In this document: piece by piece, positions 3,620 through 32,142 of the stretch
How the letters are laid out: each line of letters starts with the position of its first letter
Numbering within the stretch: the stretch's first letter is position 1
Assembly (NCBI GenBank): GCA_944389495.1
Contig: CALXMN010000001.1
Coordinates: 7,551-71,550, forward strand
Direction: 5' to 3'
Length of the DNA: 64,000 nucleotides
Source of the DNA: an uncultured Alphaproteobacteria bacterium
GTDB lineage: Bacteria; Pseudomonadota; Alphaproteobacteria; Rs-D84
The notes under the pieces: generated by a model
The model's database searches: none
Seen by the model: only the letters and a program-made list of their open reading frames with translations
What the model was told of the DNA's origin: nothing
Position numbers and translations under genes: made by a program

Positions 3620-3898
3620 TTATTCTAATGGACAGATTTCGGTAAATTCATATGTGCCGGTTGTATCGGTGTATTCTGTGTTCGCCGGTGCGTACATTAT
3701 GCAAAAACCGTCGGGTGCGGTGGTCAGACAACTGGTCACCGTACCACCAGATAGGTAACCCGTCGGACAGGACCAAGGCGCGATAATTGTATCTTTTTCT
3801 TCGGCCTGTATATATCCATTTGGGCACGTGGTCAGTGGTTCGGCCGCAATTGCGGTGCGGAATATCGGTAATATACATAAAAACAAAGATTTTTTCAT
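3620..3898 (-). CDS. Small secreted Cys-rich protein (cassette 1, gene B)
   Basis: AGGAGG RBS; signal-like N-terminus; two CPxGY repeats; CIMYAPANTEY...CPLE shared with 31864-32142. Confidence 0.8.
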   Translation of the reverse strand: MKKSLFLCILPIFRTAIAAEPLTTCPNGYIQAEEKDTIIAPWSCPTGYLSGGTVTSCLTTAPDGFCIMYAPANTEYTDTTGTYEFTEICPLE

Positions 3899-3917
3899 AT
3901 GCATCCTCCTTGTCTGT

Positions 3918-4340
3918 TTAAATAGATTTTATCAGCGAATATCTGAATGGTTGATTTGCTGTTATTTGTTTTGCGCATTCTTCTGCGCATCGGCTGGTAC
4001 AGGAAAGGCTGTTGCTAAATGAAAATGCTTTTACCCAGTTTGACATAACGGGGTGAATTATTTTGCAGTAACAATGCCGATTGTTGTTTTGCGTTGTTGC
4101 ATCGATTTGCAGATGGGTTAGTGCGCCCGAGTTGTCTTCAGAAGAGCATCCTGCAATACCGTCGATAACCGTTTCTTTGTTGTTTGTGTCACAATTGGTG
4201 CGCCAATCATATGCACCTTTAAATACACCGGCACTGCATTTTGTAAGTCCGGAATCCAGTGCCACGCACTTTACAACGGCCGCGGCCGGCGGAATCGCGA
4301 CCACACACAACGCACCTGCGATTAGTAAATATTTTTTCAT
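3918..4340 (-). CDS. Small secreted Cys-rich protein (cassette 1, gene A)
   Basis: GGAGATAAGAAT-ATG; signal peptide; VVKCVAL and CYCK..P..S.W..C...CA..CA scaffold shared with 31411-31848. Confidence 0.85.
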   Translation of the reverse strand: MKKYLLIAGALCVVAIPPAAAVVKCVALDSGLTKCSAGVFKGAYDWRTNCDTNNKETVIDGIAGCSSEDNSGALTHLQIDATTQNNNRHCYCKIIHPVMSNWVKAFSFSNSLSCTSRCAEECAKQITANQPFRYSLIKSI

Positions 4341-4371
4341 ATTCTTATCTCCATTTTCTTTTGTTTTTTAT

Positions 4372-4547
4372 AAAGAAAAACCACCGAATTTTTTAGGTGG
4401 TTGGAGTTTAAGAACAATTGATCGAATTGCGTGGCTTATTCAATATATTCACCACACTCCAACCGCGCGGGTTGGATTTATTTTACGTCCGTATTACCAG
4501 ACGCGATCAATGGGTTCTTAAGCCCAATGTGGAAACACCCCACATCA
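4372..4547 (-). ncRNA. Structured leader RNA, C4-antisense-like element copy 1, ending in an intrinsic terminator
   Basis: Homologous to 31212-31388 and 19140-19296 with compensatory changes; AACCACC/GGTGGTT hairpin plus U-run; upstream TTGATT-16-TATTAT promoter-like sequence. Confidence 0.7.
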
Positions 4548-4733
4548 GTATTTATAATATCATACGCGCGTGGTAAATCAACAGTAAATGTTATTCATAA
4601 TCATTTGTTAATCTTGTTCAAGGCAATGTTTGCAGTAAATTTTATGCAAAACACTTGACTTTTTAACAAAATATGTTACTTTTGTAGAAACTTTTGAACA
4701 AAACGAACAAGAACAATAACAAGAGAAAGACAG

Positions 4734-5033
4734 ATGAGCAACATTGCAATCTTTCAAACCGGCGGCAAACAATATCGCGTAAAGGCGGGCGATTTTGTAA
4801 AGGTTGAACGCCTGAATGCCGAAGGTACGGTCGAATTCGACCAGGTTTTAATGCTGGACGATAAAATTGGCACACCGTTTGTTGACGGTGCGCGCGTTGT
4901 GGCCCAGGTTGTTGAACAAAAACGTGGGGACAAGGTTTTGGTGTTCAAGAAAAAACGCCGTCAAAACTATCGTCGCACACGCGGCCATCGCCAGTATATT
5001 ACGGTTTTAAAAATTACGGAAATCAAGGGTTAA
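4734..5033 (+). CDS. rplU: 50S ribosomal protein L21
   Basis: [12 protein letters not shown]...[16 protein letters not shown]. Confidence 0.98.
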
Positions 5034-5058
5034 TCCCCGGATATGAAGGAGTTTAATT

Positions 5059-5325
5059 ATGGCACATAAGAAAGCTGGTTCTGCAACCGCCAACGGACGC
5101 GATTCTGCGGGACGTCGTTTGGGTGTTAAAAAATCCGGCGGCAGCCGTGTTATCCCGGGCAACATCATTATTCGCCAGCGTGGTACATCGGTTCATCCCG
5201 GTCTGAACGTTGGTATGGGCAAGGACCACACACTGTTTGCAAAAATTGCGGGCATTGTGAAATTTAAAAAGGGTTTGGGCGACAGAAAGACTGTTTCTGT
5301 TATTCCAGAATCCGAAGCAAAATAA
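5059..5325 (+). CDS. rpmA: 50S ribosomal protein L27
   Basis: [25 protein letters not shown]. Confidence 0.98.
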
Positions 5326-5350
5326 AAAACGCCCCGACGGGGCGTTTTTT
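5324..5350 (+). terminator. Intrinsic terminator after rpmA
   Basis: AAAAAACGCCCC-GAC-GGGGCGTTTTTT. Confidence 0.85.
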
Positions 5351-5453
5351 ATTAGAGAACAAAGTTCAGGAGAAAGTTAGCAGTAACGAGCAACCAGTAA
5401 CATTTTCATCTTTTATGCGGGCGGTTGTTGTGATATAATTACATAATAAAATT

Positions 5454-7829
5454 ATGAGAAGATTGCCCCTGTGCTTTTTCTTGATGGCGGTTTTTATACC
5501 GTTGGTTTTTGCCGACGGTACTGCTTCGGCCATATCACGTGTTATTCCATCTACGGGCGATACAACAAATGGCGCCGCGACCACGTCCGGCGGGCGCGGG
5601 GCCACAAATACGGTTTCGCGCACATCCGTATCACGTGCGACAACTGCGACAACGACGGGTGAACAATCGATTGATGTTTCCGGCCAAGATTCAGAAAATA
5701 CATCTGGGCGTGGGACGTCGGCACGCACGGTCGTCGGGCGCAGTGCAACATCCGGACAATCCAGGTCTGTGACGGACAATTCATCGGTTGTGCGTGTTGG
5801 TTCGCGTGTGTTGAATTTGGGGGACGCGGCCACGCCAACATCAACCGCGCGTGGTTCAACGACAACCGTGAATTCGGGTACATCGCGTGCCGGTGCGACC
5901 CAGACGCATACAAATACTGCGCGTGAAAATTTGGATGCAACGGTTAACACGGTTGGTCGCAACGCTCGTGTGGAAAGTGCAAGTATAAATAATAATCCTG
6001 CGGTTCGTCGGGCTGGGTTGACATTGCGGCCATCCACGGCCGAGGTTGGCGGTCGTGCCACCATTGCGGGCACAGATGTCCAGACTGGATCAAACATCGA
6101 CGAACAGGTTCGTGGTGTTCGCACGCGTGCGGCGTCTGTGACACCAACGGCGGAATCAATTGCCGATGCGACCGAACGGTTAAACCTGACGTCGGATTTA
6201 AATTCTTCGTGCCAGCAACAGTATAATGATTGTATGGACCAGTTTTGTAATGTTATCGATGCAAACCAGGGACGTTGTTCGTGTTCTTCAAACCTGTCGA
6301 ATTACACCGATGTAGAAGAGGCTGTCACCGATGCCAACAACCAATTGAACGAGGTTGCACAACGTATTCGCTATGTCGGATTGTCCGCGGATGAAATTCG
6401 CGCCATTATGAATGAAACCGAGGCAGAAGAGGCTTTATCCGGCGCCAAGGATACATCTGAAACCCGTAATATGTTGGAAGAGATAGAAAATCTTATTCGT
6501 GACCCATCAAGTACGGCGTCATCATATAATTATGGTTCCGGTTTCGGGTTGGATATGGATTTAGATTTTACGACAAATATTGCGGATTTGTTCAGTTTGG
6601 ACTTTTTGAACACCGGCACAACCAGTTTTTCGAACCTGCGTGGAACGGATTTGTATAACGCGGCCAAGAATCGTTGTCGTGTCGTCCTTGACCAGTGCGA
6701 GGCCGCCGGTGCCAACATAGACCAGATTACCGCAAACTATGATTTGGCCGTGGACAAGGATTGTATTGCCTATGAACAGGGGCTGAACAAAATGAATGAA
6801 ACGTTGGTTTCTAATGTGCGCAGTGCGAATTTAATGCTGCAAAAGGCGCGTTTGGCCGTGTTACAGAATAAAAATCAATATGATGCCAAGGGATGTATTG
6901 CCGCGCTGGATCAGTGTATGACGGATGAAATGGTGTGCGGTGCGGATTATACAAAATGCTTGGATCCGACCAAAACGTATATCGATGAAAACGGCGAAGT
7001 CGTATTGGGCCAGGATGTTACCAAAATTCGTGACTTTATGACAAAGTATGACAATTCAAAAATAGACAAAGGATTTTTGCAAAATTCATACAGTATGCCA
7101 ATTGGTGTGAACAATTGCACCGCCGCAGTGGACGATTCGGACGAAGATGATGTTGGTAATAATGGCGCCTGTATTGTAAAATATTTGTTACAGAAAATTG
7201 GTACCAAGCAAGAGGTCACAGACGAAGGTTTGTGTCGTGCTGTTTTGGATAAATGCCAGGCATACACATATGACGACCGTGGAAATTATTTACCATATAA
7301 CGACGTTGTCATAAATTATGTCCAGCGTGCAATGGTTAATATTCAGGCCGAACAACGCCAGATTATATCGGACTATGCATCAAATTGTATGTTGGATATT
7401 GCGAATTGCTATAACCAACAGGTAACCCAGGTTAATGCCTGGTCCACCAGTGCCAGCGTAAACAGCATTTATAACGTTATGCGTGGTGCGTGCCGCAATG
7501 TTGCATTAACGTGCGCATATGCCGTGTTCGATCAAGACAGCACCAGTTGCCCTGCAACCAACGACGATAAGTGCATAGAAAGCATTTCGGAAATGTTTTA
7601 TCAATCATTGTTGTGTCCGGATAATGCGATATATGACGATACGTGTTCAACAACCGATGGCGAATGTGTCAATGAAAAGTGCAGATGTTTGTCTGAGTAT
7701 GAAAAGTGGGGTACCCAATGTTTGGCCAAATGTCCGCCCAATTCAAATCGTAATTCTTATGGTTCGTGCACCTGTCTGTCAGAATATGTAATGAAAAACG
7801 GTGTTTGTGAAAAGATAAACGACAACTAG
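5454..7829 (+). CDS. Large exported protein with low-complexity N-region and Cys-rich domains
   Basis: Signal peptide; T/S/R-rich region; CQQQYNDCMDQFC...GRCSCS; EGF/furin-like Cys-rich tail; paralog of 1310-3544. Confidence 0.8.
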   Translation: MRRLPLCFFLMAVFIPLVFADGTASAISRVIPSTGDTTNGAATTSGGRGATNTVSRTSVSRATTATTTGEQSIDVSGQDSENTSGRGTSARTVVGRSATSGQSRSVTDNSSVVRVGSRVLNLGDAATPTSTARGSTTTVNSGTSRAGATQTHTNTARENLDATVNTVGRNARVESASINNNPAVRRAGLTLRPSTAEVGGRATIAGTDVQTGSNIDEQVRGVRTRAASVTPTAESIADATERLNLTSDLNSSCQQQYNDCMDQFCNVIDANQGRCSCSSNLSNYTDVEEAVTDANNQLNEVAQRIRYVGLSADEIRAIMNETEAEEALSGAKDTSETRNMLEEIENLIRDPSSTASSYNYGSGFGLDMDLDFTTNIADLFSLDFLNTGTTSFSNLRGTDLYNAAKNRCRVVLDQCEAAGANIDQITANYDLAVDKDCIAYEQGLNKMNETLVSNVRSANLMLQKARLAVLQNKNQYDAKGCIAALDQCMTDEMVCGADYTKCLDPTKTYIDENGEVVLGQDVTKIRDFMTKYDNSKIDKGFLQNSYSMPIGVNNCTAAVDDSDEDDVGNNGACIVKYLLQKIGTKQEVTDEGLCRAVLDKCQAYTYDDRGNYLPYNDVVINYVQRAMVNIQAEQRQIISDYASNCMLDIANCYNQQVTQVNAWSTSASVNSIYNVMRGACRNVALTCAYAVFDQDSTSCPATNDDKCIESISEMFYQSLLCPDNAIYDDTCSTTDGECVNEKCRCLSEYEKWGTQCLAKCPPNSNRNSYGSCTCLSEYVMKNGVCEKINDN

Positions 7830-7882
7830 GGCGAATAAAAAACACGGTTTTCCCGTGTTTTTTATTGCATTTTTTAATGTGT

Positions 7883-8569
7883 TTATGCCGTTATTTTTTC
7901 CATAAATGCGTTATGTGCGGCCAATTCATCTGGGTGTGGCCGAAATTCGCGACGTGGAAAATCTGCGCCAATTTTTGGATGTGCCAAAAAAGCGGCGTGT
8001 TGTTTTTCAATTATTTCTGAAACGTCGGGCGCGGGCGCCGTGTTTTCCAGTTCTTTGTACACCTTGGCCAAAATTTCGGCGTCAATTAACGCGCCGTGCG
8101 CATCTGCGCGCGCCGTCAGTGATATTCCATACCATTTGGCCAACGCGTCCAGCGAATAACTTTTGGGGCCAAAAACGCGATTACGCGCAATAACAATGGA
8201 ATCAAATTGTTGGCTGCGCGGAATCTGGGGTAATCCCACCATCTGTAATTCGTGATTTATAAAAGGAAAGTCAAAGTCCAATCCATTGTGCGCGACAATG
8301 GGGCTGTCGCCGATAAAGGCCAAGAACTTTGGTGCGACCGCGGACATTTTCGGTTTGTCTTCCAGAAATGCGTTGGATATTTTATGAACCATATACGAAT
8401 CAGGCGGGATAATTTTCCCATCTGGGTTAATATATTCGTGAAATGTATTATCTGTTATTGTGCCGTCAATCATTTCAACCGCACCGATTTCTATGCATCT
8501 ATCGCCACGCATATATTCCAATCCGGTTGTTTCTATGTCAAAGCAAATAACACGCCCCATTGTCCCCAT
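7883..8569 (-). CDS. dnaQ: DNA polymerase III epsilon subunit
   Basis: DIETTG, EIGAVE, VAHN..FD, HGALIDA DEDDh motifs. Confidence 0.93.
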   Translation of the reverse strand: MGTMGRVICFDIETTGLEYMRGDRCIEIGAVEMIDGTITDNTFHEYINPDGKIIPPDSYMVHKISNAFLEDKPKMSAVAPKFLAFIGDSPIVAHNGLDFDFPFINHELQMVGLPQIPRSQQFDSIVIARNRVFGPKSYSLDALAKWYGISLTARADAHGALIDAEILAKVYKELENTAPAPDVSEIIEKQHAAFLAHPKIGADFPRREFRPHPDELAAHNAFMEKITA

Positions 8570-8628
8570 CCCATAAATATAGTTTTGTAAAGTTATGTTT
8601 TGTGTATTATAATGTGCTGGTGAATTTA

Positions 8629-10752
8629 ATGCTACAAAATCTTAACCCGGAACAAAAATTGGCGGTCGAAACGACTGATGGGCCATTATTGGTGCTGTCG
8701 GGTGCGGGCACGGGTAAAACGCGCGTTTTAACCACCCGGGTGGCATATATATTGAATTCTGGTTTGGCATTACCGTGGCAGGTGTTGGCCCTTACATTCA
8801 CGAACAAGGCCGCAAATGAAATGAAGGCGCGTCTGGCTGCATTTGCTGATGATGGTACGTGGTATGCGGGCGATGTATGGTGTGGAACGTTTCATTCAAT
8901 TTGTTTGCGGATATTGCGGTCTAATGCGGACGCGGCTGGTTTGCGTCGTGATTTCTTGATATATGGCGAAGATGAACAAAAAACTGTTATTAAAAATGTT
9001 TTGGCCGATATGGGGATGGACGTCAAAGATTTCAGTCCCGCCGATTGGGTTGAACGTATTTCTGCAATCAAAGACAGGGGCTTGCACGGCACAGAACACA
9101 CGTCCGCCGTTGCATTAAAGATATTAAATGCATACAACGCAGAATTGGCGCGTCTTGGTGCGGTGGATTTTGGTGATATTATTTTAAAAGTTTTGGGTTT
9201 GTTTGACGCATTTCCTGATATTCTTGCCCGGTACCAGCGTCAGTTTAAATATATCCTGGTTGACGAGTTCCAGGATACAAACGCCGCTCAGATGCAGTTA
9301 TTACAAATGTTAACACGTGGTATTGAAAATCCGAATATATGCTGTGTTGGTGATGACGACCAATCGATTTATTCGTGGCGTGGTGCGGAAATAAAAAACA
9401 TTTTAAATTTTGAAAAGACATTTCCAAATGCCAAGGTTATCCGTTTGGAAACCAATTATCGCAGTACACCAAATATTTTGGGGGCGGCAAATTCTTTGAT
9501 ACGGCATAATACCGGTCGTCTTGGCAAAGATTTGCGTACACCGGATACATCCACACCTGGCGAGCCGGTTTATGTTTTAACCGTCCCCAGTGATTTTGAC
9601 GAGGCGCGCATTGTTGCAGATACAATTATGTCCAAATCATCGGATATGCCGTATTCTGGTTTTGCAATATTAATTCGTGCGGGCTCGTTATCACGTTTGT
9701 TTGAAGAAGAATTTACATCGCGTGGTATACCGTATAAATTAATTGGTGCGACCAAGTTCTATGATCGTGCCGAAATACGTGATGTGATTGCGTATTTACG
9801 ATTACTGGTATATCCGTTTGATGATATATCGTTTATGCGTGTTATTGGGCGCCCACGTCGTGGGTTTGGGCCATCTGCGATTGCGCGTCTGCGTACCGCG
9901 GGTGAAAATCTGATGGATGGGTTACGCCACGCGCAATTAACCACGCGTCAGCGTGCGGCCGCAGATGCATTTTTGGCGGCGTTTGATTTTGACTGGGCGG
10001 GCATTGCGCCAATGGATGCCGCCCAAAAGTTGTTGGATAATGTGGGCTATATAAAAATGTGGCGTGAATCCAAGGATGCGGATGCAACCGACCGATTGGA
10101 TAATATACGCGAATTAATAACAAACGTAATTGCCAAGTATGACACTTTGTCGGAATTTTTAGAGCACGCGGCATTGATGATGACGGACGATAATGATTCA
10201 GATGATGCAAACTCTGTGGCTGATGCGGTCAGCATTATGACAATTCACGCGGCCAAGGGGCTGGAATTTGATACGGTTTTTCTGCCCGCCTGGGAAGAGG
10301 GTATTTTCCCCAATGATATGGCGGTCCAGTCCGGCGGGCAAGAGGAAGAGCGTCGTCTTGCATACGTTGCGATTACACGTGCGCGTCGTCGTGCGATAAT
10401 AATAAACACAATGTCACGAATGCTGTTTGGTGAACGTCGCTATAATTCGCCCAGTCGCTTTATTACCGAAATGGATAACCGCTTTTTGGATTTCCAGGGT
10501 GGTGCGCCACGTTCTTATGTGTATGGTAACTATGGTGATGGGGCATATTCGCATTCGCGTGGTGGCACATTAAATACGGTTTCGCGTATGCGACGTACAA
10601 CAGAACATAAATCTGCGGTGGGTCGTTTGGTATCACACGATGAATTGGGCAATGGCGTTATAATCGAAGAAAACGGTGATATACTGACAATTGCCTTTAA
10701 GGCCAAAGGTATAAAAAAGGTTGCCCGCCAATATATTAAGTTTATCGATTAA
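8629..10752 (+). CDS. uvrD: UvrD/PcrA family DNA helicase
   Basis: SGAGTGKT, TFTNKAA, VDEFQD, VGDDDQSIYSWRGA, HAAKGLEF, EERRLAYVAITRAR. Confidence 0.95.
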   Translation: MLQNLNPEQKLAVETTDGPLLVLSGAGTGKTRVLTTRVAYILNSGLALPWQVLALTFTNKAANEMKARLAAFADDGTWYAGDVWCGTFHSICLRILRSNADAAGLRRDFLIYGEDEQKTVIKNVLADMGMDVKDFSPADWVERISAIKDRGLHGTEHTSAVALKILNAYNAELARLGAVDFGDIILKVLGLFDAFPDILARYQRQFKYILVDEFQDTNAAQMQLLQMLTRGIENPNICCVGDDDQSIYSWRGAEIKNILNFEKTFPNAKVIRLETNYRSTPNILGAANSLIRHNTGRLGKDLRTPDTSTPGEPVYVLTVPSDFDEARIVADTIMSKSSDMPYSGFAILIRAGSLSRLFEEEFTSRGIPYKLIGATKFYDRAEIRDVIAYLRLLVYPFDDISFMRVIGRPRRGFGPSAIARLRTAGENLMDGLRHAQLTTRQRAAADAFLAAFDFDWAGIAPMDAAQKLLDNVGYIKMWRESKDADATDRLDNIRELITNVIAKYDTLSEFLEHAALMMTDDNDSDDANSVADAVSIMTIHAAKGLEFDTVFLPAWEEGIFPNDMAVQSGGQEEERRLAYVAITRARRRAIIINTMSRMLFGERRYNSPSRFITEMDNRFLDFQGGAPRSYVYGNYGDGAYSHSRGGTLNTVSRMRRTTEHKSAVGRLVSHDELGNGVIIEENGDILTIAFKAKGIKKVARQYIKFID

Positions 10753-10776
10753 AAAAATCCGCGTTGCGCGGACTTT

Positions 10777-15963: not shown

Positions 15964-16031
15964 TACTCTCGGACTTTTTTGTCTTTTCAATTATATCACA
16001 TTTAGGGCAAAATATGATATACTTAAAAACA

Positions 16032-17321: not shown

Positions 17322-17389
17322 AAAATCAAGTGCTTTATTTAACGTGCCCCCCTTTTTTGTATAAACCGAATCTGATATAATTCATAGCA

Positions 17390-17905
17390 ATGAGGCACTT
17401 TCCGATTCTTTACTGGCCACGCAAGACAACCGCCGACCCGGATTACCAGTTGGCGCGCAAGGTCATAAATAATACCGCCGGTGTGATGCCGGATGTTATA
17501 ACCGGCGATTTGGATTTGATGGGGCTTTTGGCCAAGAATCCAAATGCAACAATATATTATCCTGTATTTTGTGAATCGACCGGTTGGTGGGGGGAATTGT
17601 TGGGCGGCAATGCCGTTGTAACGGACAAATTAATTATATCCCCGGAATGTCAGTTAATGGTCATAGAATCAGAACATACGGCCGGTACATCGACGCGTGG
17701 CAAAAATCAACTGTTGGCGGCGGAAATCTATCCAGCCAGCGGTTTTTTCAAGAAAATGAATTCTGGTATTGCGACGGTTGCAGATATGTTGGCAACGGAT
17801 GCCGGCACGATTTTGGCACTGTTTGCGGGGAAAAGTCCCACCCAGTTTATAAATGTTTTGGAATCAACGGGAAATTCATATTTGGGATGTATTGGTCGGT
17901 ATTAA
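17390..17905 (+). CDS. Hypothetical protein
   Basis: 171-aa ORF filling the gap; TATAAT 8 nt upstream of ATG; no family recognised. Confidence 0.7.
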   Translation: MRHFPILYWPRKTTADPDYQLARKVINNTAGVMPDVITGDLDLMGLLAKNPNATIYYPVFCESTGWWGELLGGNAVVTDKLIISPECQLMVIESEHTAGTSTRGKNQLLAAEIYPASGFFKKMNSGIATVADMLATDAGTILALFAGKSPTQFINVLESTGNSYLGCIGRY

Positions 17906-17919: not shown

Positions 17920-17947
17920 TTGATTTCTGGAAAAATACTTGTATAAT
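17920..17947 (+). promoter_or_regulatory. Sigma70-type promoter of rpmE
   Basis: TTGATT-16nt-TATAAT with TG upstream. Confidence 0.55.
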
Positions 17948-17980
17948 TTCGGGGCTTATGAAATAAAAAGGGTAAATACG

Positions 17981-18193: not shown

Positions 18194-18217
18194 TATAATT
18201 ATATACGGGGCGGGGCA

Positions 18218-18922: not shown

Positions 18923-18948
18923 TTTTTTTGTTTGATGGCTTGGTTTAT

Positions 18949-18970
18949 CCCGCACAAACGCGGGGTTTTT
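18949..18970 (+). terminator. Intrinsic terminator of rpmE-suhB
   Basis: CCCGC-ACAAAC-GCGGG followed by GTTTTT. Confidence 0.6.
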
Positions 18971-19065
18971 ATTTGATGGTCCGGTGCGAATGATTTTTAG
19001 CCAGAATCGAGAAACACATCACTTAATTATCTTTTGCCGGGTCAAAAAATAAAAACCCGGGCCAG

Positions 19066-19296
19066 AAAAAGGGCGGGAATGCCCGAATTTGTGGAGATAA
19101 GATGGACATTCCCACGGCAGGTTACATATATTTGTAACAGGTGGTTGGAGGTTCAAAACTATATCAAGCAAATAGCGGAACTTATTCGATATATTCGTTC
19201 CCCTCCAACCCGATAAGCAATTGGTTGGCAGGATTTTAACGCAACCCGGTGCGCGCCTGATAGAGGTTTTGATGCCTCGCATTGATTCCCAATGCC
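19066..19296 (-). ncRNA. Stand-alone C4-antisense-like structured RNA, copy 3, with 3' hairpin exposing an anti-RBS loop
   Basis: Same stems as copies 1 and 2 with compensatory changes, loop GAATATATCGAATAA, CCTCCAACCACC; extended -10 TGTTATAAT upstream; 12-bp terminal stem with G-U pairs only on the minus strand, followed by CCTTTTT. Confidence 0.7.
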
Positions 19297-19380
19297 ATAT
19301 TATTATAACACGTTTAATTTTGCATTTCCAGAAAATAAAATACAAAACTTGCAAATGCGGGATAAATATCTTAAAATTTA

Positions 19381-21435: not shown

Positions 21436-21449
21436 AAATGGGGGAAAAG

Positions 21450-21743
21450 ATGAAACGTTTTATGTTGATGTTTTTGATGGCAATGACATTGGTTGCGTGT
21501 AATAAAAAAGATTCCACGATTGTTTGTGGTGATTATGATGTAACAATAAATATGGCCGCGGATGGCGAAACAATAACTGCGGTTATAAACGGCGACGAAA
21601 TGACATTACAACACGCGATTTCAGCATCTGGGGCGCGATATGTCGGCGAATTAAATGATACCGTTGTGACATTATGGAACCAGGGCACGGAATGGACGCT
21701 GTTTTTTAACGAAGATGTACCAATTTCGTGTACTATTAAATAA
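21450..21743 (+). CDS. MliC/PliC family lysozyme-inhibitor lipoprotein
   Basis: Lipobox LVAC; ISASGARY and LWNQG motifs. Confidence 0.8.
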   Translation: MKRFMLMFLMAMTLVACNKKDSTIVCGDYDVTINMAADGETITAVINGDEMTLQHAISASGARYVGELNDTVVTLWNQGTEWTLFFNEDVPISCTIK

Positions 21744-21797
21744 TTTTGGCTTTGTAATATTTATGTGATAGAATGTCAGCATAAGAAGGAGAATTTT

Positions 21798-22886: not shown

Positions 22887-22887
22887 G

Positions 22888-24033: not shown

Positions 24034-24048
24034 ATTGGGGGATTTAAA

Positions 24049-25095: not shown

Positions 25096-25169
25096 TTTGT
25101 TTGATGCATTTTTCCACTTGCGCCCGATTCGTCATTTGTTCTATGATAAATACAGGAAGGAAAGGAAAA

Positions 25170-26639
25170 ATGCGACAGATTGCAATTTCTGTGTTATCGC
25201 TGTTTATTGCGTTGCCGGCATTTGCGGATGTTCGTTTGCCGGTTGTAAATATTGCTGCGGGCGGGATTTCGGCGCGTGCCGCATTTGGTGAACCGATTGT
25301 TCCAACACAATCTGTAACGCCAAAATCGACCGGAACTGTCGCATCAAATTCAACAAAAGATACAAAAAAATTGGCCCAAGATTCTGTGAACGTGGCGGAC
25401 ACGGCCGCGCGTGCCGTTGTACCCGCAAGGCCGGAAACGCTTGTGGCCACGGCGGATGCGGCGGATACGGGCGAACAAATTATTGCGGATGCGGATGTTT
25501 TGACACCGCGCCGGCCCAGTTCTGATTTATGGGCGCACGCATCGGTTGGTGATGTGGTACCGTTGCGTTTACCCACACCGGACGAGTTTTCGGTTATCCG
25601 TTCTGATGCCACATTACCGGAAGAGAATTTGGATAATACCGCCAAGACGACGCAAACACGTGTTGCCGTGGCGCCGGTTAATAAACCTGTGTCGGTAAAT
25701 ACAGAAACGACGTCCCGTGCGGTGTCGGAACCACTGTCTGAATTGGATGCCCAGATTGCGCGCCTGAACGAATTACAGCGTCGTGCCGACGAAAGTGTAC
25801 GTGAAGATTTTGCCCGGGCTAACCCCGCACCACGTGCGGCAACGGTCGTGGACCAAAACGTTACGACGCGTCGAAATGTTGTTGCGCGCCCAACCGTGTC
25901 GCGTGCCGCAAATATTGATGTGGCGCCCCGTGTTGCGCGTTCAGATGTGGACGATTATTCCCCCAACGATACAGATGATGTAACTTTGTCGCAAATGGTT
26001 GTACCAATGGATGATATGACCGATGACGTTGTTGTTCGCGCGGTAAAAAAGGCAGAATCCCCACGCATCGCATCTGTTCGTAATGATATGACACAAATGA
26101 GCCCCAGTGAATTACGCAAGGCGTTCAGAAAAACATTTTTATCTGAAAACAAACATTTGTCCACATTCCAAATAGACGATCGTTTTGACGTGGCCAGTGA
26201 TATGACCGCCAACGCCGCAGGTTTTACGTCTGCGCGTGATTTGTCCGAAACGGGTGGTATTCGTCCATTGGAAATCAAGATAAAGTTCCGTAATGATGAT
26301 GCGGCATTGTCGCGTGATAATTATAATTTGTTAACCGAATATGCGGGAATTGTGTTAAGCAATCCAACACGTGCGGTCCAGGTTTCAATTCCGCAAAGTG
26401 TAACGACCGACAAAGATGATCGTAAATTGGCGGCGCGTCGTTTGGCCATCATAGAACAGGTGTTACGTGATAACGGTATTTCCGAACAACGTATTTTACC
26501 TGTCTTGTCCCAACGGGACGAGGAGGGATTGGTTCTGCGTATGATTTCTTTGGATCAATATGAAACATTGACCCGTCAACAGCGTGATATATTTGGCGAC
26601 ACAATCAGCAAAAAAACCTACAGAAGTATGTCGTGGTAA
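25170..26639 (+). CDS. Exported protein with low-complexity region and C-terminal OmpA-like domain
   Basis: AAAGGAAAA RBS, signal peptide, IKFRNDDAALS...LAARRLAIIEQVL..NGIS..RI resembles OmpA_C. Confidence 0.6.
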   Translation: MRQIAISVLSLFIALPAFADVRLPVVNIAAGGISARAAFGEPIVPTQSVTPKSTGTVASNSTKDTKKLAQDSVNVADTAARAVVPARPETLVATADAADTGEQIIADADVLTPRRPSSDLWAHASVGDVVPLRLPTPDEFSVIRSDATLPEENLDNTAKTTQTRVAVAPVNKPVSVNTETTSRAVSEPLSELDAQIARLNELQRRADESVREDFARANPAPRAATVVDQNVTTRRNVVARPTVSRAANIDVAPRVARSDVDDYSPNDTDDVTLSQMVVPMDDMTDDVVVRAVKKAESPRIASVRNDMTQMSPSELRKAFRKTFLSENKHLSTFQIDDRFDVASDMTANAAGFTSARDLSETGGIRPLEIKIKFRNDDAALSRDNYNLLTEYAGIVLSNPTRAVQVSIPQSVTTDKDDRKLAARRLAIIEQVLRDNGISEQRILPVLSQRDEEGLVLRMISLDQYETLTRQQRDIFGDTISKKTYRSMSW

Positions 26640-27391
26640 GTCCGTATATGGAACGCGTGACCAAGTTTGTTTCAGGTGTCACGCGTTTTTCAATTGAATT
26701 TTTATTTCCGTCTGCGTGTCCATTGTGTGATGCGCCTGTATCTGTGGACGGCGAATTGTGTGCAGATTGTTGGACATCTTTTAATTGGATTGGGCGTCCC
26801 TGTTGTGTACGGTGTGGTTATCCGTTTCCGGCGGATTTGGATTTAGGCACGCGTCCGTTGTGTCCAAAATGTGCGTCGGGTGAAACTTCGTTGGACTTTA
26901 TTCGCAGTGCGTGTGTTTATGATGATGTATCGCGTTTGGCAATGTTGCCGTTCAAGCACGGCGGTCGTATTCGTTATGCGTCGTTTATGTCGCGTGCAAT
27001 GATGTGGGCGCTGCGTGATATTGATGTTCAGCCAGATATTATATTGCCGGTTCCATTGGCGTATCGTCGTTTGTTTCATCGTGGTTATAACCAGGCGGCA
27101 TTATTGGCGCGGCCGATTGCGCGTGCGTATGGTGTAACAATGGATTTGGATTGTGTTCGTCGCGAATACAGGCCTGATATGGGACACAAAAGTGCGCCCC
27201 AGCGTGCGGAAAATATTCGTGGTGTATTTCGCGTTATTCATCCGGATGCGGTTCGCGGTCGCCGCATTTTGTTGGTTGACGATGTTATGACAACGGGCGC
27301 GACATTTTCAGAATTGTCACGTGTATTAAGAAATGCGGGTGCCACGGCCGTATATGGTGTAACATTTTGTCGTGCGGCACGCGCAATATGA
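26633..27391 (+). CDS. comF: ComF family competence protein
   Basis: Double zinc ribbon, RGYNQA, LLVDDVMTTGAT. Confidence 0.92.
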   Translation: MVSPYMERVTKFVSGVTRFSIEFLFPSACPLCDAPVSVDGELCADCWTSFNWIGRPCCVRCGYPFPADLDLGTRPLCPKCASGETSLDFIRSACVYDDVSRLAMLPFKHGGRIRYASFMSRAMMWALRDIDVQPDIILPVPLAYRRLFHRGYNQAALLARPIARAYGVTMDLDCVRREYRPDMGHKSAPQRAENIRGVFRVIHPDAVRGRRILLVDDVMTTGATFSELSRVLRNAGATAVYGVTFCRAARAI

Positions 27392-27399
27392 AATCGGAT

Positions 27400-27798
27400 T
27401 TATTGCATACGCTGGTTATATTTATTTATAAAGGATTTCAACATATGATGCTTGTGGCTTTGTAATTCTTGGCGTATCACCTGGACCGAGCATAAATAGG
27501 CCAGTAATTCCAGTTGGTCGGCCAAATTTTTTATTTTTGTTGGATCCTTTGGAATGCTTGGTGTGTTGAATACTGGTTTTATGGCACGTGCGAACTGCTC
27601 GTTATCAGAAAACATTTCGTATTCTATATAGCAATTTTGTGGATCTGTATGTGAAAATCGTGTGCATAAATCTATGGTTACGTTATTTCCCCCATCGGTC
27701 ATTTCGAATGAATAAATTGACTCGGTCGGCGAGTTAATCGCCGAAACATACGATTTTTGTATCAATTCACATAATAAATAAAACAAATAAATTGGCAT
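27400..27798 (-). CDS. Hypothetical protein
   Basis: 132-aa ORF filling the gap, AT-rich. Confidence 0.55.
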   Translation of the reverse strand: MPIYLFYLLCELIQKSYVSAINSPTESIYSFEMTDGGNNVTIDLCTRFSHTDPQNCYIEYEMFSDNEQFARAIKPVFNTPSIPKDPTKIKNLADQLELLAYLCSVQVIRQELQSHKHHMLKSFINKYNQRMQ

Positions 27799-27913
27799 AG
27801 CGGTTGTTATCGTATTACAAATATTTCTTTTGTCAAGCGTTGTATAACAATGCCTTGAATTTTGTTTTTTATCTGGTACGATTTACGGGTATTAATTTTT
27901 ATGGGATATTACG

Positions 27914-30322
27914 ATGAATATAGAACTGGGTAAAAACGTTAACACGCGTGAACTGGAAACCAAGATCCAGGAATTTTGGGATTCAAATAATTTCTGGGAT
28001 AACGATGTAAATTCTGACAAGACGCCATTTTGTATAATGATGCCGCCACCGAATGTAACGGGTAATTTGCATATGGGGCACGCATTGGATAATATTTTAA
28101 CGGACATAGTCTGTCGGTATAAGCGTATGTGTGGATACGATGTGTTGTGGCAGCCGGGTACGGATCACGCATCTATTGCGACCCAGTTGTTGGTAGAGCG
28201 CGATTTGTCAAAGCGCGGCATAAATCCCCGTTCTTTAAGCAAAGAAGAATTGTTAAAAACTGCCTGGGAATGGAAGGCCGACAAAGGTGGTCAAATCATT
28301 CGTCAATTGCATATATTGGGCGTGACGCCGGTGTGGCATCGTGAACGTTTTACTATGGACGAAGGTTTGTCGCACGCGGTTATAAAATTATTTGTCAAGA
28401 TGTATAATGCGGGAATAATTTATCGTGCAAAACGCCTTGTTAATTGGTGCCCGAAACAGCAAACATCTGTATCGGATCTAGAGGTGGAAACCCGGGAAGA
28501 ACACGGAAAATTTTATTATTTTAATTATCCATTGGTTGGTGGTGGGGTGGTTGAAATTGCAACCACACGTCCAGAAACATTATTTGGGGACCAGGCAATC
28601 GCCGTACACCCGGAAAATGAAAAACTAAAGCATTTAATTGGTCGTCGTGCAATTATACCGTTAACCAATATTGAAATACCGATTATTGGTGACGAGCACG
28701 CCGATCCGGCCAAGGGTACCGGTGCGGTAAAAATTACGCCCGCCCACGATTTCGACGACTGGGACGTTGGGGTTCGTCATAACCTTGGGGTGGTTAATAT
28801 TTTGACCCCGGATGCGAAATTGAATGACAATCCGGTTGTGCCGGAAAAATATCGTGGTATGGATCGGTTTGCGGCGCGTGCAGAAATTGTTGCGGATATT
28901 GATGCCGCCGGTCTGTTGGTAAAAATAGAAGATAAAATAATTCCGACACCATATTCTGAACGTGGCGGTGTGGTTGTAGAACCGTATCTTACGGATCAAT
29001 GGTTTGTTGATACGACAAAATTGGTTGGCCCGGCCATAGATGCGGTGGAATCGGGCAAGATAAAGTTTATGCCTGAACACAGATATAATCTTTATATGTC
29101 TTGGATGCGAAATATTCGCCAGTGGCCAATCTCGCGCCAGTTGTGGTGGGGACACAGAATACCGGCGTGGTATGATGCAGATGGTAATGTCTATGTGGCC
29201 GAGAGTGAATCCGCCGCCGTCGAACAATCGGGTGGCAAAAAATTAACCCGCGATAATGATGTGTTGGATACGTGGTTTTCGTCGGCGCTGTGGCCATTTT
29301 CTACGTTGGGTTGGCCGGATGAAACGCCCGAGTTAAAAAAGTATTATCCAACAGATTTATTATACACCGCCGCAGATATAATCTTTTTCTGGGTTGCGCG
29401 TATGATAATGATGGGGATGTACGTGATGGGCGACGTGCCATTCAGAATGGTTAACTTTCACGGTTTGGTGCGTGATGCCAAAGGACAAAAAATGTCCAAA
29501 ACCAAGGGTAATGGCACAGATCCATTGGTCGCGGTTGAAAAATTCGGTGCAGATGCATTGCGTTATTGGGCGGCAACTGCGCCAATTGGAACGGATCTGC
29601 GTTACAGCGATGACGAGGTTAGACGCGGATCCAAGTTGCTTACAAAATTGTGGAATGCGTCAAAATATGTTTTGATGAATCTGGCGGATTTTGATCCGAA
29701 TACTGCGGCGCCGATTGCGATTGAAAACAGATATATCGAAGATAGGTGGGTTCTGTCTGAATTGAACAAGACAATCGCAGATGTGCGTCGGCATTTGGAT
29801 AAATATGATAACTGTAATTCTCGTGCGGCGATTGACACGTTCTTTTACGAAATATTCTGTGATCAATATTTGGAGTTTATCAAAGACAGATTTTGGTCGC
29901 CGGAAAAATACAGTGCCGAATCAAAACTGTCTGCGCAATGGACGTTGTTCCAGGTGTTGCGTGCAATAATCGGAATGTACGCACCGTTTATTCCATTCCA
30001 GACCGAAGAATTATGGCAAAAGATTTATAAGGCATACGAAGGCGGTGAAACACTGCATCTGACGTCGTACCCGGTGGTTGACGATGCGCGTAATACGGAT
30101 GTGTCCAATATGCAAATTGCACTGGATATTTTAAAAAGTGTTCGTGGTTTACGTACCGAGCGCAAGGTTGGCAATGGTGCCAAATTGGAAACTTTGACAA
30201 TTCCGTCCACAACACCGGCAACATTGCACGGATTAATTAAATCCGCCGCACGTGCGAACGAAATAATTTTGGGCGATACAATTGACTTTGTTGTTGCCGC
30301 ATCACAAGCAAAGGCGGAATAA
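27914..30322 (+). CDS. valS: Valyl-tRNA synthetase
   Basis: PPPNVTGNLHMGH, ATTRPET, ISRQLWWGH, KMSKT. Confidence 0.97.
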   Translation: MNIELGKNVNTRELETKIQEFWDSNNFWDNDVNSDKTPFCIMMPPPNVTGNLHMGHALDNILTDIVCRYKRMCGYDVLWQPGTDHASIATQLLVERDLSKRGINPRSLSKEELLKTAWEWKADKGGQIIRQLHILGVTPVWHRERFTMDEGLSHAVIKLFVKMYNAGIIYRAKRLVNWCPKQQTSVSDLEVETREEHGKFYYFNYPLVGGGVVEIATTRPETLFGDQAIAVHPENEKLKHLIGRRAIIPLTNIEIPIIGDEHADPAKGTGAVKITPAHDFDDWDVGVRHNLGVVNILTPDAKLNDNPVVPEKYRGMDRFAARAEIVADIDAAGLLVKIEDKIIPTPYSERGGVVVEPYLTDQWFVDTTKLVGPAIDAVESGKIKFMPEHRYNLYMSWMRNIRQWPISRQLWWGHRIPAWYDADGNVYVAESESAAVEQSGGKKLTRDNDVLDTWFSSALWPFSTLGWPDETPELKKYYPTDLLYTAADIIFFWVARMIMMGMYVMGDVPFRMVNFHGLVRDAKGQKMSKTKGNGTDPLVAVEKFGADALRYWAATAPIGTDLRYSDDEVRRGSKLLTKLWNASKYVLMNLADFDPNTAAPIAIENRYIEDRWVLSELNKTIADVRRHLDKYDNCNSRAAIDTFFYEIFCDQYLEFIKDRFWSPEKYSAESKLSAQWTLFQVLRAIIGMYAPFIPFQTEELWQKIYKAYEGGETLHLTSYPVVDDARNTDVSNMQIALDILKSVRGLRTERKVGNGAKLETLTIPSTTPATLHGLIKSAARANEIILGDTIDFVVAASQAKAE

Positions 30323-31051
30323 ATGACGGAAAAGTTAATAGAAAAACGCGTGCTCCAGGCGTATCAATGCGACCGTTATGGGTATGTTCGGCCATTAATT
30401 TTAATGAATGAATTACAGGGTGTCGCTGATACGCACGCCGAACGTCTTGGGTGTGGTCGTACGTATTTGTTGGAACATAATTTGGCGTGGGTTGTAACGC
30501 ATTATCTGGTTGATATTGTGGAAATCCCGCGTGAGGGCGAAGAATTGTCGTTTATAACCTGGCCGTCTGCACACGATATTCTGCGTGCCACCCGTGATTT
30601 CGAGGTTCGTGGTGCAGACAATCGATTGTTGGTTCGTGCCACGTCCCAGTGGATTTTAATTGATATGTCGCGTCGTCGGCCGTTGCGTCTGGATGAAAAT
30701 TTACCATATTGGGAAATTATTCCGGAACGCGCGTGGGATGTGCCGTTTGAAAAGTTTCCGGATTTTGTATCGACCAAAACGCATACAATGAAATGCCGTT
30801 TCGATGATATTGATGTGAACCAGCATATAAATAATGCGGTCTATGCGGTATGGGCCACGGAAAGCGTCGGGTACATATATCGTAATCAACATAAATTGAA
30901 ACGTATCGAATTGAATTTCAAAAAAGAAATCAGTCCGGACACGCCTGAAATTTCAGTTGATGTCGCAATTGATGGTCTGACCAGTCGTCATAAAATCAAG
31001 ACGGGTGATATAGAACACGCAGATGTTATTTGCACGTGGGCCGATTTGTGA
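30323..31051 (+). CDS. Acyl-ACP thioesterase
   Basis: Double hot-dog fold; DIDVNQHINNAVY motif. Confidence 0.88.
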   Translation: MTEKLIEKRVLQAYQCDRYGYVRPLILMNELQGVADTHAERLGCGRTYLLEHNLAWVVTHYLVDIVEIPREGEELSFITWPSAHDILRATRDFEVRGADNRLLVRATSQWILIDMSRRRPLRLDENLPYWEIIPERAWDVPFEKFPDFVSTKTHTMKCRFDDIDVNQHINNAVYAVWATESVGYIYRNQHKLKRIELNFKKEISPDTPEISVDVAIDGLTSRHKIKTGDIEHADVICTWADL

Positions 31052-31065
31052 TAAAATTGCTTGTG

Positions 31066-31095
31066 AAAAAAATGGGGCGCTTGCCCCATTTTTTT
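31066..31095 (+). terminator. Intrinsic terminator
   Basis: AAAAAAATGGGGC-GCTT-GCCCCATTTTTTT. Confidence 0.85.
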
Positions 31096-31211
31096 GTTAT
31101 GGGTCACAGGGCGGTGGTATGTGTGGTGTATTTTTTTTTATTCTATGATGGGTTTGGTAACCGAATTTTATTATTCCTTGCGTTGGTATGGCTAATACGA
31201 TAATATAAATA

Positions 31212-31388
31212 CGTCGGTGGGTGTTCCGCCGATGGGCTTAAGAACCCTTTACACGCGTCTGATTCAGACGTTAAACAAAACGTCCAACCATAACGGTTGG
31301 AGTGTGGTGAATATATTGAATAAGCCACGCAATTCGTGTAATTGTTCTTAAACTCCAACCACCTGAAAATTTTTGGTGGTTTTTTCTT
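31212..31388 (+). ncRNA. Structured leader RNA, C4-antisense-like element copy 2, ending in an intrinsic terminator
   Basis: 43-nt and 25-nt blocks identical to copy 1 flanking a 3-nt variable loop; TTGCGT-17-TAATAT upstream; AACCACC/GGTGGTT plus U-run. Confidence 0.7.
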
Positions 31389-31410
31389 GCAGAAAAAAGG
31401 AGATAAGAAT

Positions 31411-31848
31411 ATGAAAAAATATTTATTAATTGCGGGTGCGTTGTGTATGGTCGCGATTTTGCCGGCGGCGGCCGTTGTAAAGTGCGTGGCATTAAAGCCC
31501 GGCGAAACCACTTGCAGTGGCCCCAGTTTAAGTCCGGGTACGAATGAATGGACAACAACGTGTACAACAAATGGTACAAATGTGCCAGTCAGTGGTATAA
31601 TCGGGTGTTCGTCCGTCCGCGGCAGTTATGTTGGGGCCACTGTTGATGAATTACCAACAAATGTAAGAGCAGATGAAACGGTATACTGTTGGTGCAAAAT
31701 GACAAGTCCCGCTGTATCAAAATGGACGTATCGTACATCTTGGAGCGATGCAGAAACTTGTTTGAACTCTTGTGCCCCTAATTGTGCAAATGCATTTTGG
31801 ACGACGGATGGATTCAGTGATGGAATGTTTTCGTCTTTGTATGATTAA
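31411..31848 (+). CDS. Small secreted Cys-rich protein (cassette 2, gene A)
   Basis: GGAGATAAGAAT-ATG; MKKYLLIAGALC..VVKCVAL; CWCKMTSPAVSKW; paralog of 3918-4340. Confidence 0.85.
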   Translation: MKKYLLIAGALCMVAILPAAAVVKCVALKPGETTCSGPSLSPGTNEWTTTCTTNGTNVPVSGIIGCSSVRGSYVGATVDELPTNVRADETVYCWCKMTSPAVSKWTYRTSWSDAETCLNSCAPNCANAFWTTDGFSDGMFSSLYD

Positions 31849-31863
31849 ACAGGGGGGGCAGAT

Positions 31864-32142
31864 ATGAAGCATTTATTTGTTTTTATATTGGCGATCGCGC
31901 CGTGTGCATCATTTGCCGCCGCGCCGTCAACATCGTGTCCATCCGGTTATGTTGCCATAGAAGAAGAATATATGGCCATAGCGAATACTTCGTGCCCATC
32001 GGGTTACACATCCGCCGGCGCCGCGGCCAGTTGTTTAATTACCTCGCCCACGGGGTCGTGCATTATGTACGCGCCGGCAAATACAGAATATGACGATGTC
32101 GCGGGTGTGTATCTGTTTACCGCCGCGTGTCCGTTGGAATGA
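31864..32142 (+). CDS. Small secreted Cys-rich protein (cassette 2, gene B)
   Basis: Signal peptide; CPSGY x2; CIMYAPANTEY...CPLE; paralog of 3620-3898. Confidence 0.85.
   Translation: MKHLFVFILAIAPCASFAAAPSTSCPSGYVAIEEEYMAIANTSCPSGYTSAGAAASCLITSPTGSCIMYAPANTEYDDVAGVYLFTAACPLE

Follow-up and report, generated by a model that had tools for sequence, protein, structure and literature searches.

An RNA element repeated in the window

The window analysed here is a stretch of 64,000 nucleotides (nt) from an uncultured Alphaproteobacteria bacterium of the order Rs-D84 (GenBank assembly GCA_944389495.1, contig CALXMN010000001.1, positions 7,551 to 71,550 of the forward strand), and it contains three copies of one structured RNA element. 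An earlier note, made from the letters of the sequence, had described these copies as a candidate new system of chromosomal C4-like antisense RNA switches, two of them leading cassettes for small exported cysteine (Cys)-rich proteins. The genome that holds the window (G000) measures 905,540 bp in 10 contigs and is 96.8% complete. A BLAST search with copy 3 found 13 copies in this genome, from which a covariance model of the element (R1) was built; a second model (R2) describes its 70-nt core alone. R1 places the three copies at 4373-4550 (-), 19123-19300 (-) and 31209-31387 (+) of the window, which correspond to G000:C1:11923-12100, 26673-26850 and 38759-38937 for copies 1, 2 and 3 (window offset 7550). 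The model and the fold evidence given below bear out the note on the presence and place of the three copies: the observation is real and confirmed, and chance is excluded. Folded as single sequences, copies 3 and 1 have z scores of -6.2 and -6.4, respectively, with 0 of 200 shuffles as stable. The parts of the three copies and their cassettes are listed below with their ribosome-binding sites (RBSs), protein lengths in amino acids (aa), model scores in bits and expect values (E).

Copy 1, 4554..4581, minus strand: promoter-like site TTGATT-16-TATTAT with TG before it, the -10 ending a few bases before the RNA (promoter scan)
Copy 1, 4373..4550, minus strand: RNA element with P1 hairpin, four-way junction and terminator-like hairpin (R1 183.1 bits, E 2.5e-39; z -6.4)
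Copy 1, 4396..4464, minus strand: C4/Xcc1-like 70-nt core, GGUUGGAG...CUCCAACCACC (R2 82.1 bits; alternative-fold covariation)
Cassette 1, 4343..4352, minus strand: RBS GGAGAUAAGA, complementary to core segment UUCUUAAACUCC
Cassette 1, 3918..4340, minus strand: gene A, 140 aa, signal peptide, 10 Cys
Cassette 1, 3620..3904, minus strand: gene B, 94 aa, Cys-rich, no Pfam family above cut-off
Copy 2, 19302..19330, minus strand: promoter-like site TGGAAA-17-TATAAT, 10/12, with TG before it (promoter scan)
Copy 2, 19123..19300, minus strand: RNA element, an orphan without a downstream gene (R1 87.3 bits; RF02221 35 bits)
Copy 2, 19140..19210, minus strand: core (R2 82.3 bits)
Copy 2, 19062..19114, minus strand: tail with a 10-bp hairpin, a 19-nt loop with UCUUAUCUCC (anti-RBS of six cassettes), then a U-run
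Copy 3, 31178..31206, plus strand: putative promoter TTGCGT-17-TAATAT (by eye; uncalled in the scan)
Copy 3, 31209..31387, plus strand: RNA element (R1 179.1 bits; fold z -6.2)
Copy 3, 31295..31363, plus strand: core (R2 83.3 bits)
Copy 3, 31357..31385, plus strand: terminator-like hairpin AACCACC/GGUGGUU with 11-nt loop and U-run, its 5' arm overlapping the core outer stem (uncalled in the scan)
Cassette 3, 31399..31408, plus strand: RBS GGAGAUAAGA
Cassette 3, 31411..31848, plus strand: gene A, 145-aa Cys-rich secreted protein of a lineage-restricted family
Cassette 3, 31864..32142, plus strand: gene B, 92 aa, Cys-rich, signal peptide

A two-gene cassette for small Cys-rich proteins with signal peptides lies downstream of copy 1 and another downstream of copy 3, and the open reading frames (ORFs) at both sites agree with the description of these two copies as leaders. 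Copy 2 has no cassette. The loop of its tail hairpin (19075-19114) is complementary to GGAGATAAGA, the RBS sequence of both cassettes, as had been reported (UCUUAUCUCC against GGAGATAAGA). This 10-mer occurs 7 times in the genome, compared with about 2 expected by base composition; six of the occurrences are cassette RBSs and the seventh is the antisense of copy 2. The promoter scan of the window called copies 1 and 2 and left copy 3 uncalled.

The neighbours of the window copies are all housekeeping genes (L21, L27, inositol monophosphatase, PBP1A, acyl-acyl carrier protein (ACP) thioesterase, class I aminoacyl-tRNA synthetase and GyrA), and the earlier statement that no phage gene lies beside them is correct. 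Around the three copies we found no phage immunity context (icd/ant, prophage), nor did we see among these housekeeping neighbours an integron or genomic-island context, at which no integrase-aimed search was directed. At the Rfam gathering score the window yields two tRNAs only (36193-36264 and 37534-37604 (-)), and permissive Rfam matches on copy 3 were rejected as noise. Elsewhere in the window, ORFs of 753 aa (1283-3544 (+)) and 171 aa (17390-17905 (+)) have no Pfam family at E<=1e-5.

Two alternative folds with compensatory changes

The earlier note had proposed covariation as a check on the RNA structure, and compensatory changes were found in two folds. RNAalifold on the alignment of the 13 copies predicts 29 pairs, 18 of them with compensatory changes. 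A structure drawn by hand on the same copies has seven helices (P1, the P2 extension, P2, P3, P5, P6 and the terminator-like helix) and is 87.6% paired, compared with 37-47% with slid partners. In alignment A3, which holds 124 R1 matches from 100 loci of relatives, 93.8% of the cells are paired versus 70.8% after shuffling and 41-48% with slid partners, and both sides have changed in 40 of the 46 pairs (1243 cells).

In this closed fold a 5' hairpin, P1, precedes a four-way junction that P2 and P3 close. Inside it are a variable hairpin (P4), P5 (UCCAACC/GGUUGGA) and P6 with the loop GAAUAUAUUGAAUAA. All six pairs of the P2 helix and all five of the P3 helix are changed on both sides, with 97.6% paired in A3, and the terminator-like helix is 95.5% paired in the same alignment. 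Conserved unpaired stretches lie near the junction, namely the A-rich J4/5, the 15-nt loop and CAAUU. The UGUUC of the P1 loop could form a kissing contact with GAAUA of the hairpin-1 loop, which is nearly invariant and hence gives no covariation. A palindrome in the loop, AAUAUAUU, was considered as a general dimerisation site and rejected because variant loops break it.

The second, open fold involves the 3' half of the element. GGUUGGAGK, composed of the P5 3' strand and the first P6 bases, can alternatively pair with a downstream CUCCAACC over 9 pairs, 96.8% paired; at pair 242:333 of this helix GC is found in 73 sequences, UA in 30 and UG in 8. Once P6 is shortened and a second hairpin (CAAUU/AAUUG, CUAUA/UAUAG) is added, the open fold takes the form of a three-way junction of 70 nt; pair 294:318 in the second hairpin is AU 60 times and UA 49 times. 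Its 19 pairs are 92.5% paired, as against 35-48% with slid partners, and 14 of them have changed on both sides. The core consists of the outer stem GGUUGGAGG/CCUCCAACC, a first hairpin whose loop GAAUAUAUUGAAUAA is conserved, the second hairpin and a single-stranded junction, and RCC comes after it. Among 124 sequences, the GGU at the core start is conserved in 122 (G), 117 (G) and 118 (T), and the RCC after the core in 123 (A or G), 119 (C) and 113 (C). In the divergent copy C2:113702 all three segments are altered jointly, to CCCUGA, GGUCAGGGGG and CCUCCUGGCC. The closed and open folds are mutually exclusive and both carry compensatory changes. Since the outer stem overlaps the AACCACC 5' arm of the final hairpin, the folds differ in whether that hairpin can form.

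These changes also bear on whether selection acts on the RNA or on the DNA. In the latter case the block of promoter, leader and signal peptide would be a recombination substrate that swaps cargo by cassette exchange or antigenic variation, the RNA structure being incidental or secondary. The syntenic site after the acyl-ACP thioesterase indeed holds a different cargo in another genome (L109), the P2 5' strand of copy C3:76235 is mismatched to its 3' strand in the manner of a recombinant, and the remnants downstream of two degenerate copies are identical. However, 1243 cells with both-side changes in four helices indicate selection on RNA pairing, not DNA identity, and variable helix sequence would lower recombination. 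We consider a DNA repeat of this kind highly improbable.

Complementarity of the core to the downstream ribosome-binding site

The single-stranded junction of the core, together with CUCC at the start of the outer stem 3' strand, is complementary to the Shine-Dalgarno (SD) sequence and spacer of the next gene. In five copies of genome G000 the segment UUCUUAAACUCC is complementary to GGAGAUAAGAA. Other core and RBS sequences are matched in the same way: UGAACCUCC with GGAGUGUUCA or GGAGGUUUA, GUUUAGAACC with GGUUCUAAA, and CUAACUUCC with GGAGUUAG. Over 70 non-redundant pairs of element and RBS, the cognate mean is -9.55 kcal/mol, compared with -8.07 kcal/mol (standard deviation 0.2) for permuted pairs, and 0 of 5000 permutations reach the cognate value. 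The cognate advantage remains when CUCC and the SD are left out, with 1 of 5000 permutations as low.

Whether this pairing appears depends on the upstream part of the RNA. When copy 3 and its RBS are folded with the 5' domain, P2 is kept and only CUCC:GGAG pairs. When the same copy is folded from GGU onward, the minimum-energy fold pairs UUCUUAAACUCC with GGAGAUAAGAA over 12 bp, around the terminator-like hairpin. Because the full anti-RBS pairing appears only without the 5' domain, the upstream domain behaves as a mask, or anti-sequestor. On the whole, we think it rather probable that the modules are self-contained antisense-RNA leaders of the C4/sRNA-Xcc1 type that occlude the downstream RBS.

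Family size, distribution and cargo

The three copies in the window are part of a family much larger than the earlier note had counted. In genome G000, R1 has 28 matches up to E<=1 and 23 when the limit is set at E<=2.2e-5, and R2, with the core only, has 21. The density is about one element per 35-40 kb, with about 25 modules among ~900 genes. The genus was sampled with 24 genomes, every one of which R1 matches, and one genome of ~1 Mb reaches the maximum of 45 matches. At E<=1e-5 it matches 130 of the 151 genomes of the order Rs-D84 (106/107 in the genus, 117/121 in the family and 10/19 in one other family), and more than 1100 matches were summed over these 151 genomes, where at most 18 candidates per genome were scored. 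The proposed scan of the genome and its relatives with a covariance model returned many further copies, partly linked to cassettes. An exact-pattern scan found at least 117 stretches in genome contigs, among Candidatus Enterousia, 'Alphaproteobacteria' and 'Rickettsiales bacterium' metagenome-assembled genomes from animal and human gut, versus 1 stretch in 2.9 million viral contigs. According to the accessible part of PMC12306168, Ca. Enterousia (order Rs-D84) are gut bacteria with genomes below about 1 Mb.

The sole viral-contig match (L195:8439-8616, IMG/VR) has P2-like tail genes (tube, tape measure, GpU, GpD) and a PLD-like/EcoRI-type methylase pair (restriction-modification) before it and an ABC transporter after it. 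This copy probably sits in host flank at a prophage-host boundary. A viral origin of the family was rejected on these grounds, with a single viral-contig match that is probably host flank.

The genes downstream are of several kinds. Among the 25 best R1 matches in genome G000, 10 lie ahead of a member of a ~140-aa Cys-rich family, 1 ahead of a shorter relative, 5 ahead of larger Cys-rich proteins with a signal peptide and 3 ahead of small helix-turn-helix (HTH) proteins (Pfam HTH_3 in 2/3); the remaining 6 are orphans without an ORF of at least 40 aa downstream. The 124 matches in relatives comprise 97 with an ORF, 15 with another copy next (<=150 nt downstream), 10 without an ORF and 2 at a locus edge. 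With signal peptides assigned by a crude rule, the 93 distinct ORFs of the relatives fall into 24 small proteins of Cro/XRE-like type, 12 members of the ~140-aa Cys-rich family, 11 further proteins that are signal-peptide-like and have at least 6 Cys, 13 that are signal-peptide-like and have fewer, and 33 others. Pfam places HTH_31 in 7 and GT2 in 2 of the relatives' cargo proteins, with single cases of an ABC transporter, GmrSD, an outer membrane protein (OMP) beta-barrel and a YadA-anchor. Cys-rich secreted proteins are thus a genuine cargo, as the earlier note proposed, and not the exclusive one, given the 24/93 Cro/XRE-like genes and the glycosyltransferases.

The ~140-aa Cys-rich secreted family (31411-31848 and 3918-4340 in the window; relatives P0001-P0031) has 10 conserved Cys and a C-terminal SLSD, and no Pfam family was found for it. 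Its relatives at E<=0.001 number 31 and are all unnamed metagenome proteins. The confident AlphaFold model of the protein (predicted local distance difference test 79.6, predicted template modelling score 0.73) consists of a beta-sheet and two C-terminal helices, and none of the 60 matches listed against solved structures is at E<=0.001. The family is lineage-restricted.

Several individual loci show other arrangements. Two divergent elements, G000:C4:16580-16746 (-) and C4:16849-17002 (+), stand back to back ~100 nt apart, one with a Cys-rich gene and the other with a small HTH gene. The copies G000:C2:18482-18649 and C9:14991-15175 are followed by an identical downstream remnant, an RBS and signal-peptide coding sequence with the start codon missing, which looks like a duplicated and decayed cassette; in the copy at C9:14991-15175 the 5' half is replaced. 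The element at L109:3632-3802 is syntenic with copy 3, following an aminoacyl-tRNA synthetase and an acyl-ACP thioesterase, and its cargo is a different protein of 245 aa, which hints at cargo exchange behind a fixed leader.

Orphans and tandem copies raise the question of action in trans. In one array, all 5 of 5 copies have their own TTGATA-17-TATAAT promoter (11/12), ending 2-3 nt before the RNA. The elements might then be trans-acting small RNAs (sRNAs) aimed mainly at transcripts of phages or mobile elements, the link to the downstream gene reflecting a shared promoter and read-through. Arrays and orphans exist, Cro/XRE-like genes are the commonest cargo (24/93), a viral contig carries one copy next to P2-like tail genes, and C4, isrK and sRNA-Xcc1 are typical of phages and genomic islands, with tandem copies in Xylella (accessible part of PMC12189769). 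Yet the variable junction is complementary to its own downstream RBS, beyond the SD, in many copies; the window copies lie among housekeeping genes; the viral contigs gave 1 match in 2.9 million versus at least 117 stretches in genome contigs; and a search for trans targets of the copy 2 junction found no RBS match at <=2 mismatches. We judge such targeting to be quite unlikely.

The cargo and the arrays also bear on a purely cis-acting sensor, a riboswitch or protein-dependent attenuator in which the junction would be an aptamer and the resemblance to C4 only topological. Binding of a ligand or protein would stabilise P5 and P2 and free AACCACC for the terminator, so that surface and regulator genes would be switched jointly. 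The P5 3' strand pairs with either UCCAACC or the terminator-overlapping CUCCAACC, both covarying, in a layout of anti-antiterminator, antiterminator and terminator, and the conserved unpaired stretches near the junction would suit such a sensor. Cyclic di-GMP (c-di-GMP) riboswitches occur in many copies ahead of diverse genes, as the present elements do. GGDEF (PF00990), however, was not found in the 96.8% complete genome G000, which makes c-di-GMP an unlikely ligand, and a second-messenger riboswitch of this type was rejected. Tandem arrays of 5 units with their own promoters, and orphans (6/25), would be pointless if the leader were a sensor and nothing more; the cargo is of mixed kinds; the variable P2 and P3 match the RBS region, which would be needless for a ligand pocket; and the 3' half matches a known sRNA family, sRNA-Xcc1, at E 5e-6. 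A sensor acting only in cis is in our view unlikely.

Comparison with known RNAs

Read as antisense-RNA leaders, the modules are most readily compared with the c4 antisense RNA of phages P1/P7 and its immI leader, which in the GenBank record of phage P1 runs in the order promoter, a1, b1, c4 RNA (48343-48419), a2, b2 and icd. The c4 RNA folds into an outer stem, a tetraloop hairpin, a hairpin with loop b', a junction a', the closing strand of the outer stem and ACC. The modules share with it the order of parts (promoter, upstream mimic sites a1/b1, core, putative target at the next RBS) and the topology of the core (GGU outer stem, two hairpins, single-stranded junction, 3' ACC). The variable pairing parts also correspond: here the hairpin-2 loop, which is the P3 3' strand, takes the place of b' and the junction, which is the P2 3' strand, that of a', with the upstream partners in the order a1 (P2 5' strand) then b1 (P3 5' strand). 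In contrast to c4, the outer stem is 9 bp long instead of 17, hairpin 1 has a conserved 15-nt loop instead of a UUCG tetraloop, and a terminator-like hairpin lies between core and target. Likewise, the window copies have no icd/ant or phage context, the elements number 20-45 per genome, and the closed four-way junction, here the minimum-energy and strongly covarying fold, is not predicted in phage P1. A further likeness concerns phage P4, in whose immunity seqB of the CI RNA is complementary to leader repeats seqA (upstream) and seqC (downstream); this pairing leads to premature termination and acts on transcription of the phage replication genes. In a similar way, GGUUGGAG in the present element pairs with either the upstream UCCAACC or the downstream CUCCAACC, beside a terminator-like hairpin.

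The best Rfam match of the family is sRNA-Xcc1 (RF02221; Xanthomonas, and sXF1-5 in Xylella), with 8 matches in genome G000 (26.4-40.1 bits, E 4.9e-6 to 9e-3 per genome), 4 on R1 elements including copy 2 and 4 on loci of a second class (class B, below). Among 14 control genomes, 2 have a match to RF02221 at E<=10 and 0 over the cut-off. The alignment spans exactly the open fold, from the outer stem through the A/U-rich loop of hairpin 1 and through hairpin 2 to ACC. Like the present elements, sRNA-Xcc1 is multi-copy and sometimes tandem; the accessible part of PMC12189769 gives 7 copies in Xylella, 5 of them tandem. The elements differ from it in their long 5' masking domain and the cis-linked target gene. 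Moreover, Hfq-mediated action is proposed for the Xylella copies in that part of the source (PMC12189769), whereas Hfq (PF17209) was not found in the 96.8% complete genome G000.

The class B elements have the same architecture, with a core GGUCGGGGGG...CCCCGACC followed by GCC, a UAUACAACAGG loop, and their own upstream mask and terminator-like hairpin. They are nearer to Rfam sRNA-Xcc1 than the elements described so far (class A), reaching up to 40.1 bits. All class B loci lie outside the window.

G000:C5:45596-45682, minus strand: class B element
G000:C5:47744-47839, plus strand: class B element
G000:C4:71628-71724, plus strand: class B element
G000:C4:9513-9610, minus strand: class B element
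G000:C4:2514: further class B locus
G000:C1:161659: further class B locus
G000:C3:111643: further class B locus

A third comparison is with the Group 1 RNAs of A. baumannii, for which the accessible part of PMC5320573 reports 21 C4-like sRNAs in one genome, apparently processed at GGW by RNA-seq. As described there (PMC5320573), they also form a large family in one genome, in which a conserved stem-loop region lies 5' of the C4-like part and a variable a' loop is proposed to set the target. Unlike the present elements, those RNAs match Rfam C4, and the same part of the source does not describe them as leaders or as complementary to the RBS of a downstream gene (PMC5320573). They differ further in lineage, sequence and 5' domain.

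No Rfam family reaches threshold on the elements, which may link C4, isrK and sRNA-Xcc1. A literature search with subscription journals outside its coverage found no published description of this RNA. Nevertheless, to speak of a new system was an overstatement, because chromosomal C4-like families have already been published, in A. baumannii (accessible part of PMC5320573) and, as tandem sRNA-Xcc1, in Xylella (accessible part of PMC12189769). New are the sequence, the long covarying self-mask, the cis-link to non-phage cargo with matching RBSs, the density and the lineage.

Proposed mechanism

We propose the following anatomy and action for the antisense-RNA leaders. In a module, a sigma-70-like promoter would be followed by ~175 nt of RNA, by a weak terminator-like hairpin and its U-run and then, mostly, by an RBS and gene, and each module would have its transcription driven by the promoter it carries. 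In the closed fold, the upstream segments (the P2 and P3 5' strands and UCCAACC) would mask the 3' half, and the terminator-like hairpin would be allowed to form. In the open fold, the junction of the C4/Xcc1-type core would bind the RBS and block translation, turning the gene off. The core would act in cis on read-through transcripts and in trans on paralogous mRNAs; action in trans is suggested by the orphans, the tandem arrays and the shared codes. An upstream mimic of the RBS (the P2 5' strand plus GGG) would compete for the anti-RBS and set its free amount. Finally, RNase P may cut at the opening GGU of the core in the manner of phage P1 c4, and this would free the core and make the switch irreversible. 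Genome G000 has an RNase P RNA of type A (C6:1399-1743, 163 bits), and GGW is given as the RNase P site of c4 in the accessible part of PMC5320573, citing Hartmann 1995. Beyond the pairing of sequences, we infer each of these steps, from transcription and termination to processing, repression and trans action. A search of sequencing runs listed no RNA run containing the stretch; the one run labelled metatranscriptomic, with a contig over 31090-31347, is probably DNA.

A number of results weigh against this reading. The first concern the known RNAs. Rfam C4 (RF01695, gathering score 45 bits) was scanned over the whole genome and has no match at E<=10, which does not support the earlier interpretation, and it was also without a match in the window at the gathering score, in copy 3 at E<=10, in 20 loci at E<=0.1 and in one copy at E<=1. 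R2, when run on phage P1 (50 kb), finds 48343-48419, the exact annotated ends of c4, as fifth of 9 matches at 8.9 bits and E 6.2; at this score common descent with c4 remains unsupported, and homology by way of R2 was rejected as not significant. In the minimum-energy fold of the whole phage P1 leader, c4 stays folded and a1/b1 are unpaired, unlike here. The matches to RF02221 all lie at least 13 bits under its 53-bit cut-off. What stands of the C4-like claim is the immI-type architecture, in part order, topology and covariation, and what finds no support is a match to Rfam C4 and homology to c4.

The second concern the pairing with the RBS. Much of the pairing energy is generic SD/anti-SD. 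The cognate RBS has a median rank of 0.23 over the 70 pairs, a modest effect, and among 16 copies of genome G000 it ranks first for 4 and within the top three for 11. These modest ranks imply that the variable helix defines classes and not unique locks. Of the locus-specific recognition codes proposed earlier, the preference for cognate over permuted partners (0/5000) is upheld and uniqueness is not, with five copies in genome G000 carrying one common code. By reading, copies ahead of HTH genes have little complementarity past the SD. A second site resembling b2 was not found in a by-eye look at the first codons, where only 5-nt matches to the P3 5' strand occur.

The third concern the folds and the alignments. 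The terminator-like hairpins are weak (5-7 bp, loops of 10-11 nt) and were uncalled in all three window scans, because their loops exceed the limit of the scan; the label of terminator given to the leader hairpin is not borne out by the consensus terminator scan. The closed fold, moreover, permits this hairpin while masking the anti-RBS, which complicates the logic of the on-state. A3 and A4 are alignments fitted to the model, a pattern that fixes the hairpin-1 (P6) loop and CCAACCACC was used to fetch 80 of the 100 A3 loci, and kinship among the sequences inflates the shuffle tests.

Implications for the lineage

Taken further, the antisense-RNA leaders could form an RNA lock-and-key network over a large share of the surface, secreted and regulator genes of these reduced-genome, apparently Hfq-less symbionts. 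Tens of self-masked C4-type RNAs would fall into code classes, orphans and tandem copies would act in trans, expression of the Cys-rich proteins would be hierarchical or mutually exclusive, and the upstream mask, an analogue of a1/b1, would decide on opening. We offer this scenario tentatively, as a possible but doubtful extension. The family is missing from Rfam 15 and could be added. Its hundreds of natural variants of one design of mask, anti-RBS and RBS would make the role of a1/b1, long unclear, and the rules of specificity testable. The lineage-restricted Cys-rich secreted proteins would be candidate factors facing the host or the community, under tight control. If the scenario is true, post-transcriptional regulation in an uncultured gut lineage would be dominated by an antisense RNA of the phage-immunity type.

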